Positions 16,136 through 56,670 of a stretch of 64,000 nt of DNA are shown one piece after another. The stretch lies in the NCBI GenBank assembly GCA_964016885.1, contig OZ024750.1:31930001-31994000 (forward strand), read 5' to 3'. Source of the stretch: Eledone cirrhosa (lineage: Eukaryota). The position numbers and the translations under genes were made by a program. The notes beneath the pieces were generated by a model. It saw nothing but the letters and a program-made list of their open reading frames with translations. It ran no database searches and was not told the origin of the DNA. Each line of letters starts with the position of its first letter. Position 1 is the stretch's first letter.

Positions 16136-16403
16136 ATATACGATATTAAACAAATGGAAACTATATTTATAAAACCATATTTATTTCATTATACATATTT
16201 CAGGGATACCATATTAAAAATATGGCATGCCTTCTTCAGATAAAATACAATATATAGGCAGTTTTATAAATAAATATGGTTTTATAAATATAGTTTCCAT
16301 TTGTTTAATATCGTATATCTACTCCAAAACTTTTTGAGTGCTTTATATCAGTTATAAAATATTTACTCGTTGTAACCCAACAATTTTAAATAAAACGTTT
16401 GCA
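16136..16403. mobile_element. HHR-bearing PLE-end mini-element (family H1), inverted arms, in (TA)n
   Basis: Arms 16136-16184 and 16269-16318 are inverted; homologous to 20395-20520, 30763-31046 and 49076-49165. Confidence 0.8.
16182..16247 (-). ncRNA. Type I hammerhead ribozyme motif
   Basis: Reverse strand: tattttat-CTGAAGA-aggcatgccata...tatggtatccct-GAAA-tatgta-TA-atgaaata. Confidence 0.8.
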
Positions 16404-17429
16404 TATATATATAATATATATATATATATAATATATATATATATATATATAATATATATATATATATTGTTATATTTGGGGAGGGTCATATTGTTATAAT
16501 ATTGCCAGACATAATACGATTTCATATAGTAAAGTAAAATGACAGTAGGCCAGACAGGTTGAATTTCCTTGCCGCCGAGGTTGACTTTGCCTTTCATCAT
16601 TACGCGGTCGATAAAATAAAGTACCAATAATGCACTGGGTTATTGCTGGCCTTGTGCCTAAAGTAGAAACAATTATTTATTTCTGCAAATAAAGGTGTGG
16701 TGGATTGACAGTATCGGTAGAGGGTCGGACACCATTCTTTCCAGCATAGAGTTACGCTCCTCTGCGGTCTGAGTTCAAATCCTGCCGAGGTTAACTTTGC
16801 CTTTCATCTTTACGGGGTCGATAAAATAAAGTACTTTATGGGATCGCTAAAATAATACACTGGGATAATTGCTGGCCTTGTGCAAAAAGTAGAAACATTT
16901 ATTTATTTCTGCAAACACTGTGCACATTTTAATGGCCAGCTTGCGTAAGAGCCCGGTGACATCTTCAGTTGTAAATTGCATAATAGTTGTATACCAAAGC
17001 AAAGAAAAAAAAACAGAGAAGAAAAAAGTGATTTTATTTTTTGACCCGGAGACGATCGCAGCAGCCTGTTGTTATTATGCCTCGCGGTCCCTGTGTGATT
17101 ATCTTCAGATCTTTCCTGTTAGTTTATTAAGTGCGTAGGAGGATGCACTGCTTATTGCGTGAATGGTATTCATGGGAGTAAAATATATAAAATATAAAAT
17201 ATAGGAATAGAAAATAATAAATAAGGTGTAACAATTAAACAAATAAACAGCAAAGCTTAAAAAACAATAAAGTTTAAAATCAGTGAAGTTTTAAGATTAT
17301 GTTTAAAAACCTGTATATATATATATATATATATATATATATATATATATATATATATATATATATATATATATATATATATAAATATATATATATATAT
17401 ATATATATGTATATATATATATATATTTA

Positions 17430-18182
17430 ATATGTTCAAAGCCATCCTCAGCATTCTCGTGTAGCACCGATCCACCATTTGAGTGAGTTTCTTGGTCAGT
17501 GTCCAGGTCTCAGACCCCTACAGCAGCACAGACTCCACTACAGCAATGAAGAGGCGGATTTTCAGGTATTTACGAAGGTCAGACTTCCACACCGATCTCA
17601 AGCTGTGGCACATCGCCCATGCTTTGCCCTTCCTCTCAAGCACATCATCTTCCGTATCCCCAATTATGCTCCCAAATACAGGAAGTCCTCAACCAATTCT
17701 AGGGGCTTCCCGCCTACATTAGTGATCCCCTATGGCTTCTCAACATTCTCTACCAGATAATTTGTTTTAGTCTCATTCATTCTCAGCGCCACACTCATCG
17801 ACACAGTCTCAACCTCCTGCATCAAATACTCTGCCTCCTTCACTGTATTTATCACCAAAACATTAATCAGTATACACTGAGGATGAAAAACTCAGAGCTG
17901 TATGGGAGCCTCCCAAAAATCAGCTCAATAGTGACACAGAGGAGATTGTGGTTAGCTTGACATGCTCACCGACATCCAGAGTTGACATTGCACTCAGTGC
18001 TCCTTTGGGAGCCCCTACATGGACACACTAGAAGGGCAAGACCAAGGTTAACGTATGTTGATGCCCTAAGAAATAGACACTGGTCTGTTGGAGACGCAGT
18101 ACATGGCAGCGATAATGAGGGATAGAGACCGCTGGAGACAACTCGTCCATGGATCTCGGGAATGTTACCCGCCCTAGCAAAA
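17430..18182 (+). pseudogene. 5'-truncated RTE/RTE-X-like LINE with its 5' half inverted
   Basis: Minus strand 17860->17430 encodes ...VEDFLYLGA...[43 protein letters not shown]; plus strand from about 17859 continues NINQYTLRMKNSELYGSLPKISSIVTQRRLWLA*HAHRHPEL...VLLWEPLHGHTRRARPRLTYVD. Confidence 0.85.
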
Positions 18183-52774: not shown

Positions 52775-53340
52775 AATATCATCATTATCACCATAAGCCT
52801 CAGTACTAACATCAACACCACCACCACCACCAACACTATTGTACTCATAACCTCCAATACTAACATCAACACCACCACCACCACCATTGTACTCATAACC
52901 TCCAATACTAACATCACCACCACCACCACCACCATTGTACTCATAACCTCCAATACTAACATCACCACCACCACCACCAACAACACTATTGTACTCATAA
53001 CCTCCAATACTAACATCACCACCACCACCACCAACAACACTATTGTACTCATAACCTCCAATACTAACATCACCACCACCACCACCACCAACACTATTGT
53101 ACTCATAACCTCCAATACTAACATCACCACCACCACCAACAACATCATTTTCCTCATCATCGTTATCATCAACATTATCATCATTATCATCAACATTATC
53201 ATTGTCACGACCTCTACCACTAACAGTGTCACCGCCATTATCATCATCATAATCATTATCATCATTATCACGATCATCGTCATCATCACCATCACCCACG
53301 TCGTCATCCTCAACATGAACATCATCATCATCATCAACAT
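52775..53340. repeat. Minisatellite (about 6 units of 45-54 bp) within a (CAT/CAC)n tract
   Basis: Repeated (cac)n...attgtactcataacctccaatactaacat at 52800-53140. Confidence 0.9.
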
Positions 53341-56300
53341 TGCTTTATTAAACTCACTTGTGTATATGACATATATATATAAATACATATATCCAATAAG
53401 AATTATGTTTATACCCGCACATAATTTGGGGATACACATTATATCTACGAGCAAAGAATGATAATTCTAGAAGTTGAAACTGAATACATTATAGAACTTA
53501 AAGAATGTTAAATCAATAGGTTAACCCCCCTTATTGTCCGAAGCCTGATTATGGTTTCTGATTCAGGCACAAAGCCAACAATTTTGGGGGGAAGGGGAAG
53601 ATAGATCCTAGTGTATTACTGGTACTTTATTTGATCGACCCAGTAAGGATGAAGGCAAAGCTAACCTCAACAGCATTTGAACCAACAATATTTTTTAGGG
53701 GGTGGGGGCGATTAAATCGACTCCAGTGCGTCACTGGTACTTTATTTCATTGACCCACTAAAGATGAAAGGCATAGCTACTCTAAACGGCATTTGAACTC
53801 AGAACGTAAAGGGGTTTAACTATATGCCGCAAAGCTTCTTATCCGATACTTTACTGATACTGCCAATCCACCGCGTTAAGAAGTCTAATATAATGGAATT
53901 AATGTTTACAAAACAACAGTTTAATGTTTAGCTGATAACCTTGCCAGAATTTAATAAATGTTTATCATTCGAAATCCTTCTCAATTAATTTAAATTACAT
54001 CTTCTGTCACCTGACTTCATGAGTATTTGGAGTTTGTTTTTAACGTCAACTTTCTTAATCACTGTTTCTGTTCCAATTATTGTGATAATTTTGGCTTTCT
54101 ATGTTTAAGAACATTAATATATGAATATTTATTAGTTACCCTGAATAAGCGATGTAAAATTTTAAAAAGAAAAGAATATAATGCTGCATTATCATATTTA
54201 TCTCATTAAAATCAAAATGTTATTACTTTTTTTTCTTTGTGATAATTCCTATCTTTATGAAAGGCTCTGTCATGTCAGTGATGCTGTCTTATATATTTGG
54301 CGAAATAAATCCTTGTGTTGATTTAACATATCGATTGGAACTTTTTAAAATAACTTCAAGAAAATCCTGAATACCAAGCTTTACTCTAACTTTCTCCATC
54401 ATTCTTCTATCCCTTCTATACTTAACCGAGAAATGTCAGTCAATTATAAAATTGTTAAATGTGGCTGAAAAAAACAACCTACGTCTAATTTTGATTTCTG
54501 GCGCGATTTATCTTAATACAACTTCTGTCCTCGTGAGTATAACAATATTGAAGGGTAATAAGTTCCAGTATTTCCTGCATTACTTCAGCTGTAGTCTCTA
54601 TTTTTGCCTGAACTTTTTCATGTTTTTCACTTCTTAATTTTAATTTGGTTGTTAAACATAACAGTTTTCATTTAATATTTATTCTTTCCGTTCGTTGGGA
54701 TATGGCAGGAGTAAATTGAAATCTCTATCTTCGAAAATATTTTCAGCTTTTAGTGATGTAAGCAAAGTGCGTAAACTACAAATATTTTTATTTTGATATT
54801 CGTAGCAATTGAAATTTCCTTTCCTAATCAAACAATCATTATTTACATAGACTGGCAATTTCCGTGGGGTAGCTTTGAAATGTTGGCCATTGATTATCTT
54901 CAAGTATCACGAATATAGAAGAATAGTGATAGACGTCAGGCTAAGTAAATTGTTGCATACAGAAATGCAACAAAGCACGTGTGTACATATAAATGATCTT
55001 GCCCTCAACTTCATATAGTAGCGCAAAAGTATGATACCTATATGTTACAGTGCTTTCGTTCCCATTGTATTTATTGTAAGTGTTTCGATTATTTGGGAAG
55101 AAAATATATTTGCTATGGCGCAAGAAACGTTTAATATGCGATTCGAAATATGGATCTTAGAAAGACATTGTAAATGAAAGGGAACATTGGTTATGAAATG
55201 AGCTACAGAAACTGGGAAAGAAATCTGCTGTTATTTTCTAACATAGACTCTGCAGTTACTGCCAGTCAATCGATCAAAGTATAATTGCCATATACACAAC
55301 GTTATTTCATCATTCGTTTTGAATATTGAATCTATACAAACAGTTAAAAATCATGTTTTACAATATATTGCGGGTGTGTACATACGTTTGTTATTGATGA
55401 AAACTGAACATACATTATTTATATATATATATATATATATATATATATATATATATATATATATATATATAATCAAATTTTCCTGAACGTAAATTTTTTA
55501 TAAGTGAAAAAGTATCAAGTTTATAATTTCAAAATTGTTATTAATGGTTATATAATCAACAGAACTTTACCTAAAAGTTAGGTCTTAAAATTTAAGTTGT
55601 TGTTATGAATTATTTCTGTTTTATTTGTCTTTATCAATCTTTTTGTCTTTCATAAACATTTATCATAACGTAATCTTTTGTGTGGCATATCTTGCTTTTT
55701 ATTGAAATATATAACAAAGAAAAAAACGAACAAAGGATTCCAGATTATTTGTTTGTGAAAGAATCCTCAATAAATGTTATCTAAACATTTAAATAAGAAA
55801 ATGGTGAGTCATATGATGGCAAAATACGATCTTCATACGAGCTCAGATTTCAAACTACTTTATTCATATCACTAATGCCTTCAGCAAACATCAAATAACC
55901 AATCTTCATTATAATTATATACAAAGGTAAATTTGAAGCATTCCGCCTTCTTAGATATCATTATATTTCATAAACATTTAACTTAAAATATACGTAATAT
56001 GGATGTTATTTTTATTGATAACAATAACAAAATACTTTAGTATTAAACCATTTTATAAATGCATTAGTGTAGATATTACAAACTTTCTCGTATGCATATA
56101 ATCATATATATGTACACAAACACGTCTCACTCCCTCTCTCTCTAGTCCTTTATACACATGTATAAACATGTATATATATATATATATATATATATATATA
56201 TATATATATATATATATATATATATATAGACATATATATATATATATATATTTACATATATATACATATATATTTACATATATATACATATATACATACA

Positions 56301-56670
56301 TATATATATATGTATATATATGTATATATATACACCCACACACACGCACACACACACACACATACACACACGCGCGCATATATATATATATATATATATA
56401 TATATTTATACGTACACATACATATGTATATACGTACATATATATATATATATATATATATATATATATATATATATATATATGTAGATAAATCTACCAA
56501 GAGTTTACGGTAGTGTCCAATCCGTATGAAGAACTCAATGTATTCCGGATATCATGGAAAGAAGAGATGCGATGAAAATCCACTTTCGGTGAAAGACAAA
56601 CGGTATACAGAGTCAAGATAAAATATTAAACAAATAATGAATAAACAATTCCTTATATTAAACAAAAAAA

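Follow-up and report, generated by a model that had tools for sequence, protein, structure and literature searches.

The inverted pairs in the window, that is, in the whole 64,000-nt stretch of Eledone cirrhosa DNA analysed here (Table 1), derive from Hydra-clade Penelope-like elements (PLEs), each copy being truncated at its 5' end and inserted in (TA)n. Their outer ends lie at two sites, a short end (site 1) and a long end (site 2), and hairpins of the same form, H1 and H2, follow them. Comparison of the copies suggests that the two hairpins are RT-docking elements on one RNA, each probably priming one target strand, and that the two cDNAs are then joined head to head.

Identity of the elements

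The ORF of family A in the window carries SDKTG, i.e. the replacement of DKG by DKT as in Hydra-clade PLEs, and D115 and K116 are invariant across 88 relatives. A linker, CNCRNKTNC (CxCX5C), precedes the IVY...YIG of the C-terminal GIY-YIG domain (EN), whose conserved E and N are flanked by CRLC..E and CNH (CxxC, CxH); two Cys between VY and YIG of the EN core are not conserved among aligned relatives. At the N-terminal RWK position, full-length copies of families A, G and B have the conservative variant RWR, and the relatives RWK or RWR. Family A has full-length open frames of 830 aa at other loci, and a young family in which many ORFs are intact is available. Neither the big window ORF nor the family H fragment matched Pfam at E<=0.001. 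By eye, Hydra-1_Obim and others in the supplement of PMC8557442 resemble the window element, and assignment to the Hydra clade is based on the motifs and on this by-eye likeness to named members. A TA-rich microsatellite abuts all 26 terminal family A ends. No relatives were found in the viral contigs searched. Classification as a non-autonomous non-LTR retrozyme, consisting of non-coding tandem units, was rejected for families B, C, F, G and H, whose read-through copies continue into Hydra ORFs. Hydra elements account for many of the short fold-back repeats of this genome.

A hammerhead core is visible by eye in families A, B and H, that of A having a long stem II, and clear cores are present in loci L233 and L352-L359. 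A descriptor search found a match in family F and did not return the hammerhead-like motif of family A. The Rfam matches listed for the window (150 of 370) are miRNA models on repeats, with no hammerhead among them. The H1-type motif is missing from tandem hammerhead arrays (311-584 bp) and is thus not a general property of hammerhead repeats.

Table 1. Positions of the elements and hairpins within the window
Feature	Position	Strand	Remarks
Family A 3' arm	62613..63017	+	ends at site 1 (short site), then (TA)n
Family A inverted arm	56618..57022	-	405 nt
Family A tail	56484..56617	-	spans sites 1-2; (TA)n follows
Family A H1	56533..56613	-	ACTC-TGTAT..61 nt..ATACA-TT-GAGT
Family A Hydra-clade ORF	57023..59143	+	RT, CxCX5C linker, C-terminal GIY-YIG; 5'-truncated at inversion junction 57022/57023
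Hammerhead-like motif (CTGAAGA ... GAAAC)	62813..62961	+	long stem II; ~60 nt upstream of site 1; by eye
Family B H1	16321..16339	+	upper stem degenerate; in unit 16136-16402
Family B H1	30964..30983	+	in unit 30765-31046
Family C H1	25361..25385	+	in unit 25049-25432; (CT)n(TA)n at the short-arm end
Family H H1	25510..25529	-	1-nt bulge; in unit 25470-27528
Family H RT fragment	26686-27186		within unit 25470-27528
Family G H1	31437..31460	+	degenerate; in unit 31320-31508
Family D H1 (GCTC/GAGC)	49878..49901	+	in unit 49751-49937
Family E H1	51744..51816	+	long loop; in unit 51466-51860
Family F H1	52517..52541	+	in unit 52307-52598
H1 of further family G tail	24925..24948	+	
H1 of further family G tail	52072..52095	+	
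H1 of further family G tail	52212..52235	-	faces 52072..52095 H1 across (TA)n
Mutated H1 in family H-type tail	49493..49512	-	tail 49450-49593

Hairpins at the short and long ends

H1 is a bulged hairpin, RCTC-[variable stem]-YN-GAGY-NCT, situated 2-5 nt 3' of the short-arm end. The original prediction that the short arm stops just before such a motif proved real: in an outward walk along each pair the short arm reaches (TA)n about 2-9 nt before the motif. In held-out genome the motif occurs at tails far above chance. The motifs on which it was built are all present (TACTC/GAGTG at 16320/16336, 30963/30980, 52516/52538 and 25360/25382; TACTCC at 51743; TGCTC/GAGC at 49877/49898; TACTCACTC at 31432; on the minus strand 56614-56610, 56586-56581, 25530-25526 and 25513-25509), with some corrections to their reading. 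AAAGTG is not the partner of GACTC in the big element; GAGT at 56536-56533 pairs instead and closes a 61-nt loop. The TACTCC had been listed without a partner, which sits at 51813-51816, and the copy at 31432 is a degenerate H1. Near 25530-25507 the motif is present, but the outlying distance of about 25 nt arises because the short arm there is cut off at 27528 and lacks (TA)n; intact family H copies end 4 nt before the hairpin. At 25051 the short arm meets (CT)n and then (TA)n, and at 52516 TA-like bases blur the short-arm break.

Among 30 family A loci, gathered with a query ending short of the tail, 14 end at the short site, at one base, and 12 at one long site, and 4 read through; all 26 terminal ends thus fall at two sites, as had been expected of the 3' termini. 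Register shifts with TA phase: in family F, 8 of the 28 short ends lie at -7 instead of about -4. The offsets for families G and B are from within-unit comparisons, the breakpoint-histogram reference being too diverged.

A motif fixed beforehand was applied to 400 kb of held-out genome, with 200 shuffles as control. It occurred in 18 of 39 tails and 10 of 22 clusters (shuffles: mean 0.18, maximum 2), an enrichment of about 100-fold. At random positions it was hit in 26 of 3000. Among 44 tail clusters, 26 are without the motif; one of these 26 comprises 10 copies and does have a tail. In 42,940 nt of ORF the loose motif matched nothing besides two real hairpins of L351. The covariation that had been sought across families was found in a conserved hairpin just 3' of the short end. 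In 18 clusters chosen by sequence alone, the basal pair is A-T in 10 and G-C in 8, never mixed, and 61 of 72 upper positions (four pairs each) are paired, compared with a permuted mean of 34.3 and a maximum of 50; among 21 further hairpins, basal pair 3 flips twice from T-A to A-T. The families are related and these counts represent non-independent events; they were made by script, the variable hairpins having defied structural alignment with MAFFT. Over both hairpin sets G-U exceeds C-A by 12 to 3, which favours folding of the sense strand as RNA. Single hairpins with short loops are weak (about -2 to -11 kcal/mol), the z-scores of four two-hairpin regions range from -1.1 to -1.8, and the minimum-energy fold omits the H2 of L352 and the H1 of family G.

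These data bear on the reading that the original prediction had set against itself, in which TA microhomology alone sets the ends; the motif would then reflect chance or family ancestry. Every end is indeed TA-like and the register shift in family F follows TA phase, as this reading would have it. However, the 432 nt of family A contain 49 TAT/ATA sites, of which terminal ends use 2, and neither the held-out enrichment, nor the compensatory changes, nor the near absence of the loose motif from ORF sequence fits. The reading is largely refuted and retains almost no probability.

The long end lies 3-6 nt before H2, which was found there in all six families with a read-through copy. Since tandem and full-length copies continue past the long end into H2, both sites are internal and hairpin-marked, and the long end does not coincide with the end of the RNA. 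The order along the element is hammerhead-like motif, site 1, H1, site 2, H2 and ATG, with H2 36-148 nt upstream of the ATG. H2 is present in 28 of 31 ATG contexts of family A, in all 5 family H loci that reach the 5' region (30 loci in all), and in 21/27, 3/25 and 23/25 cases in families G, F and B, respectively; the count for family C is 1/10, the read-through searches for B and C having required RCTC/GCTC. A first read-through pattern for family F, with a fixed gap, gave two matches, both by chance, and was discarded. Tail length tracks the H1-H2 spacing (67-137 and 68-138 nt), and both sites end in TA/AT-like bases that match the target. In contigs from other organisms the motif was found in 9 of 11 loci, and the long end is 4 nt before H2 in L352 and L358. 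The published Hydra consensus sequences (supplement of PMC8557442) have the same two-hairpin layout.

The original prediction was right about an internal, hairpin-marked site but assigned the other strand to priming at the RNA 3' end. Contig depth that drops more than 100-fold beyond the long end and loose (TA)n ends at that position (each in 3/3 runs, kind unspecified) would agree with such an RNA end; truncated genomic copies would cause the drop in depth anyway, and an RNA ending there would lack the H2 seen in 6/6 families and in other organisms. Priming at an RNA end is therefore very unlikely.

Pairing of ends and a proposed model of twin priming

Inverted units combine one short and one long end in 90 of 98 cases; the random sample also held three units of family F, which are not among the 98. 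Two long ends were never combined (0/98). Of the eight short+short calls, two are clear (L171, L172) and one is ambiguous (window 51886-51988); in the other five the long arm is deleted, interrupted, diverged or cut. Other organisms provide short+long pairs in L353 (two), L356 and L357, and an additional short+short pair, beyond the 98 units, in L353. Either arm of a unit may be the longer, and in three units private variants are common to both arms. The central junctions show microhomology of 3-9 nt in only 6 of 11 units, and the 5' truncation points joined at 11 family A junctions are unrelated.

In the model that probably accounts for these observations, the GIY-YIG domain would nick both (TA)n strands, and each 3'-OH would pair over 2-6 nt with U/A-rich bases just 5' of a hairpin, both hairpins being on the same tandem or circular RNA. 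Docking of RT on the hairpins is likely. Two RT molecules would initiate, one at H1 and the other at H2; the RT started at H2 would copy the tail (H1 plus spacer) and displace the first cDNA. The two cDNAs, tied to opposite target strands, would be joined head to head, often by microhomology, followed by fill-in. Twin priming at H1 and H2 would result in inverted pLTRs with a tail at one end only.

Alternatively, the hairpins might direct cleavage, such that the endonuclease or a host nuclease cuts tandem cDNA, dsDNA or RNA at the TA-rich bases 5' of each. Both sites are TA-like, same as the target, tails have been attributed to EN-mediated resolution (Craig 2021, PMC8557442), and the tail of the D. 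virilis element is required for EN recognition, as cited in PMC11167929. Nevertheless, random pairing of separately cut molecules predicts long+long units, of which there were none among the 98, the G-U excess indicates RNA rather than dsDNA, and in vitro RT start sites coincide with the tail ends of PAc (PMC11167929). We consider cleavage unlikely. Self-priming on an antisense template as the origin of the head-to-head inversions (Arkhipova 2013), with the hairpins serving another role, e.g. as promoter or translation signal, is very unlikely. That proposal was derived from palindromes at junctions (PMC3846280); several H1s are equally stable when folded antisense, and the proximity of the ATG downstream of H2 would suit such a role, but it leaves the differing outer ends and the fixed offsets unexplained, and the unrelated truncation points in family A argue against it. 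The two hairpins provide a definite cis-signal, marked by compensatory pairs, constant offsets and a rule that couples the ends, so that a handful of RNA mutants would suffice to test the proposed mechanism.

Comparison with known systems

In L1 twin priming, primers on opposite strands use one RNA, and the inversion is joined by microhomology; its second primer has varying landing positions, and the two cDNAs are not known to overlap. The model proposed here likewise has two opposite-strand primers on one RNA and an inversion, but with fixed positions for both sites and with overlapping arms. In telomerase RNA template-positioning elements and in hepadnavirus epsilon, a protein-bound stem or bulge sets the RT start beside a short primer-alignment stretch. 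In telomerase RNA the boundary element is on the 5' side of the template, whereas our hairpins are 3' of the start; epsilon is protein-primed. The likeness drawn here is one of analogy. PLEs are the closest retroelement relatives of telomerase RT. A wider view, which we regard as doubtful, is that a bulged hairpin of ~25 nt is a portable, telomerase-RNA-like template anchor conserved across animal phyla. RT would dock on it, align the (TA)n primer on adjoining bases and at times stutter, seeding (CT)n/(AC)n microsatellites; the anchor pair would program double-strand twin priming, and tails in all PLE clades would stem from paired signals that work on the same principle.

The elements share with the published Hydra clade (PMC8557442) the C-terminal EN, DKT, the CxCX5C linker, CxxC/CxH, (TA)n targets, a candidate hammerhead, and inverted pLTRs with a tail at one end. 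Hydra-clade tails were given as 30-40 bp and ascribed to EN resolution (PMC8557442), in contrast to the tails of 60-137 nt, bounded by two conserved hairpins, described here. The word 'hairpin' does not occur in the main text of PMC8557442; two conserved hairpins are visible, unremarked, in its supplementary consensus sequences. The field calls the origin of PLE inverted pLTRs and one-sided tails open (PMC8557442, PMC11167929). We found no paper on a twin hairpin or a one-short-one-long rule. The two-hairpin layout offers a testable explanation for the odd tails and inverted ends of Hydra-clade PLEs, and the hairpins supply a boundary rule for the annotation of Hydra elements.

Tails and internal initiation are already known from PAc, a Poseidon element in Anolis carolinensis (Frangieh et al. 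2024, PMC11167929). Its tail is delimited by two internal RT start sites, which in vitro are at the pLTR-ORF junction, and cutting and extension affect both target strands. Initiation in PAc takes place in an AC-rich stem-loop within the ORF, at a site that the authors describe as lacking homology to the target and that showed no difference between strands; no conserved motif was reported (PMC11167929), and the PAc stretch taken from Fig. S1 of that paper has no RCTC..GAGY. As in PAc, the 3' ends of the elements studied here fall at two separate positions, each within the tandem unit. Unlike in PAc, a conserved hairpin upstream of the ATG accompanies each of the two sites, either site matches (TA)n by 2-6 nt, and we propose that the two sites are apportioned one per strand.

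The large element and the hairpin at its short end

The window (G000:C10:31930001-31994000, source genome and contig) belongs to a TA-rich animal genome of 3.0 Gb. Its large element, family A, contains a plus-strand ORF that ends at 59143 and is truncated at 57023 by the inverted arm. The element targets (TA)n, and its motifs (DKT, RWR/RWK, a CxCX5C linker and CxxC/CxH) agree with those given for the Hydra clade of Penelope-like elements (PLEs) by Craig et al. 2021 (available part of PMC8557442), such that it appears to be a Hydra-clade PLE. The family is very young: the best 150 N-terminal matches in G000 (e.g. 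L203-L232, L326) are 99-100% identical and most sit in open frames of 830 aa. Its unit measures 6301 bp, and the 3' UTR is long and rich in microsatellites. By eye, the 3' strand of stem I in the hammerhead has a potential alternative partner downstream, just before the short end (62955-63005), possibly a switch that silences the ribozyme.

Element families and other repeats in the window
Feature	Position	Remarks
Family A	56618-57022 vs 62613-63017	big element; inverted arms
Family B	16136, 30765	units
Family C	25049	unit
Family D	49751	unit
Family E	51466	unit
Family F	52307	unit
Family G	31320 and others	
Family H	25470-27528	
Inverted pairs, tail-to-tail	52057-52245, 51296-51437	across short (TA)n; usual arrangement head-to-head
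GIY-YIG fragment	10459-10968	other PLE type; weak match to Pfam PF01541 (E 0.00018)
SINE-like dispersed repeat	1270-1650, 4640-4765, 11700-11880, 16570-16910, 39630-39840, 40310-40520, 49320-49420, 53600-53900	100-200 bp; at least 10 copies in the window
Repeat of roughly 490 bp, two copies	28287-28776, 50325-50813	oppositely oriented, 21.5 kb apart; similarity 95% over 395 nt

Just 3' of the short end (site 1) lies a bulged hairpin, H1. RCTC and an upper stem specific to each family lead into a loop of between 3 and about 100 nt; the complementary strand is followed by a bulge of 2 nt (mostly TT, TA or TC; in family H it is 1 nt) and then by GAGY and N-C-T. The original prediction proposed that shorter arms stop just before a hairpin with a shared closing stem. 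All of its motif coordinates are correct in the sequence, and at the window pairs the short arms do end a few bases before the motif. The closing stem is present but is part of a tighter structure that includes the family-specific upper stem, the bulge and the 3' flank. Because the loop is long in families A and E, their stem partners had been missed or mis-assigned; they are located at 56536-56533 and 51813-51816, respectively.

Retrozyme-like tandem arrays of hammerhead-bearing 311-584-bp units occur on C10 beside the window (L045-L046, L059) and on contigs C2, C6, C9 and C11. One has short and long ends of its own; the hairpin motif was found in none of these arrays.

Two ends and a second hairpin

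Family A loci were gathered with a query that stopped short of the tail, the stretch between site 1 and the long end (site 2). The two predicted peaks of 3' termini were recovered: 14 of 30 loci end at site 1, all at a single base, and 12 at site 2, about 135 nt further on (one of them 2 nt earlier), while four read through in tandem arrays. The same 432 nt offer 49 TAT/ATA sites, and the proposal that microhomology alone sets the ends fits poorly and is scarcely credible.

Inverted units, in which two arms are opposed head to head in (TA)n, combined a short arm with a long one in 90 of 98 cases (A 11/11, F 22/22, C 25/29, G 21/24, B 11/12), the queries for families C and F being biased to inverted units yet devoid of the tail. 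No long+long unit occurred among the 98. Eight were called short+short, two clearly and one ambiguously, the other five having a damaged long arm. Two further family A units, the outer end of which lies beyond the stretch analysed, are outside the count. Either arm can be the longer, private variants are common to both arms within three units, and the central junction overlaps by 3-9 nt in 6/11 units. Antisense self-priming, as presented in the accessible part of PMC3846280, is a poor fit and very unlikely.

In family A arrays a second hairpin of the same form, H2 (GCTC-CTA..TAG-TT-GAGC), begins 5 nt past the long end and is followed by ATG; it is present in 28 of 31 family A ATG contexts. Predicted from family A, H2 was then sought in families B, C, F, G and H. 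Five of the 30 family H loci extend to the 5' region and all five contain H2, with TCTC replacing RCTC and a 1-nt bulge as in H1 of this family. The family G pattern, which required only two G/C bases past the long end, gave 441 matches, and H2 and then a Hydra ORF follow in 21 of 27 distinct loci. With GCTC required, family B gave 114 matches, 23 of 25 loci being complete; family C has H2 in 1/10 (RCTC required) and family F in 3/25, the others entering a microsatellite or unrelated flank. The window itself contains no H2. Since families B, C, F, G and H read on through H2, their copies are truncated autonomous elements. The hairpin is offset by 2-5 nt at site 1 and by 3-6 nt at site 2. The tail is 67-137 nt long, tracking the H1-H2 distance of 68-138 nt. 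According to the original prediction, the other strand is primed at the RNA end; instead, the long end reads on into H2. Derivation of the long end from the RNA end is a poor fit and very unlikely.

At the short junction of family C (L143-L172; 25030-25051 in the window), 6/33 short arms carry (CT)n of at least four units, compared with 0/26 tailed arms at the same internal site. Long ends frequently carry (AC)n, which the sole read-through copy lacks. These repeats could have arisen when the RT stuttered as it initiated, or through slippage at a later time.

Chance, covariation and relatives

Tails were surveyed, without use of the motif, as inverted pairs in which one end lies at (TA)n and the other at a distance of 35-200 nt. 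In the first sample of 664 kb (window plus 600 kb), a motif tuned on these tails after their inspection occurred in 27/64 non-window tails and 9/26 clusters (shuffles 0.21, maximum 2) and at 26/3000 random positions. The motif was then fixed for 400 kb of new stretches, where it occurred in 18/39 tails and 10/22 clusters (shuffles 0.18, maximum 2) and in 5 of 14 clusters new to the survey, one of the five being similar to family C.

The covariation expected across families was found among the 18 clusters, of 44, that had been chosen on sequence alone, with pairing not required. The first basal pair is A-T in 10 and G-C in 8, with no mixed case, and the first four upper pairs are complementary in 61/72 cells, compared with a mean of 34.3 under permutation (maximum 50; 20,000 permutations), counts that retain one probably unrelated palindrome and are not independent events because the families are related. 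Among the remaining 26 clusters are artefacts of the scan as well as real tailed elements that lack the motif. In a further 21 hairpins the first two upper pairs are complementary in 37/38 cells (permuted 22.8, maximum 33), the first pair having been partly selected for by the search; basal pair 3 is altered on both sides twice.

The 11 relatives comprise one metagenome contig (L233) and ten Hydra-clade PLE-containing contigs from bacterial MAG records (L350-L359), the latter probably animal host DNA carried into bacterial bins. The motif lies downstream of a hammerhead-like core in nine; L350 stops at the hammerhead, and in L354 H1 is degenerate and H2 reads GCAC/GTGC. L233, L351, L352 and L358 have two hairpins before the ATG, and in L352 and L358 H2 begins 4 nt past the long end. 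Inverted pairs of the short+long kind are present in L353 (two, plus one short+short pair), L356 and L357. Six new Hydra consensus sequences in the accessible PMC8557442 supplement were inspected by eye: H1 terminates coral Hydra-2_Amil and sea cucumber Hydra-2_Ajap, Hydra-1_Ajap opens with H1 and H2, the H1-like and H2-like copies of copepod Hydra-1_Crog contain mismatches, Hydra-1_Obim has a weak H2-like copy, and Hydra-1_Amil stops short of the hairpin region.

Possible function and known systems

The twin hairpin, with the layout and offsets, the covariation and the pairing rule described here, is a genuine and conserved cis-element that Hydra-clade PLEs carry as a pair. Judged from sequence, two RTs probably dock on a single RNA, one at H1 and one at H2, each priming one nicked target strand. 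Both strands would be nicked, each RT would prime at TA-like bases adjoining its own hairpin, the first cDNA would be displaced by the second RT, and the cDNAs would be joined head to head. The main rival, in which the hairpins direct cleavage, is unlikely; the lack of long+long units speaks for a single template that carries both sites, as opposed to two RNAs or two cut products randomly chosen. L1 twin priming, telomerase RNA and epsilon offer points of comparison.

Tails and inverted pLTRs have already been described (PMC8557442; PMC3846280; PMC8969392, as far as accessible). Neither a conserved twin hairpin nor the one-short-one-long rule was found in full-text searches of the accessible literature, mostly without subscription journals (Arkhipova 2006 and the D. 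virilis papers among them), and the available portions of a 2026 retrozyme preprint and PMC4209133 contain nothing relevant to the hairpin. According to the accessible text of Frangieh et al. [quoted passage not shown] In PAc RNA (Fig. S1 therein), GAAAG followed by an ACAAC-rich run occurs twice at a spacing of about 34 nt, similar to the tail length of 30-40 nt; these repeats are possibly a paired signal of another sequence in Poseidon.
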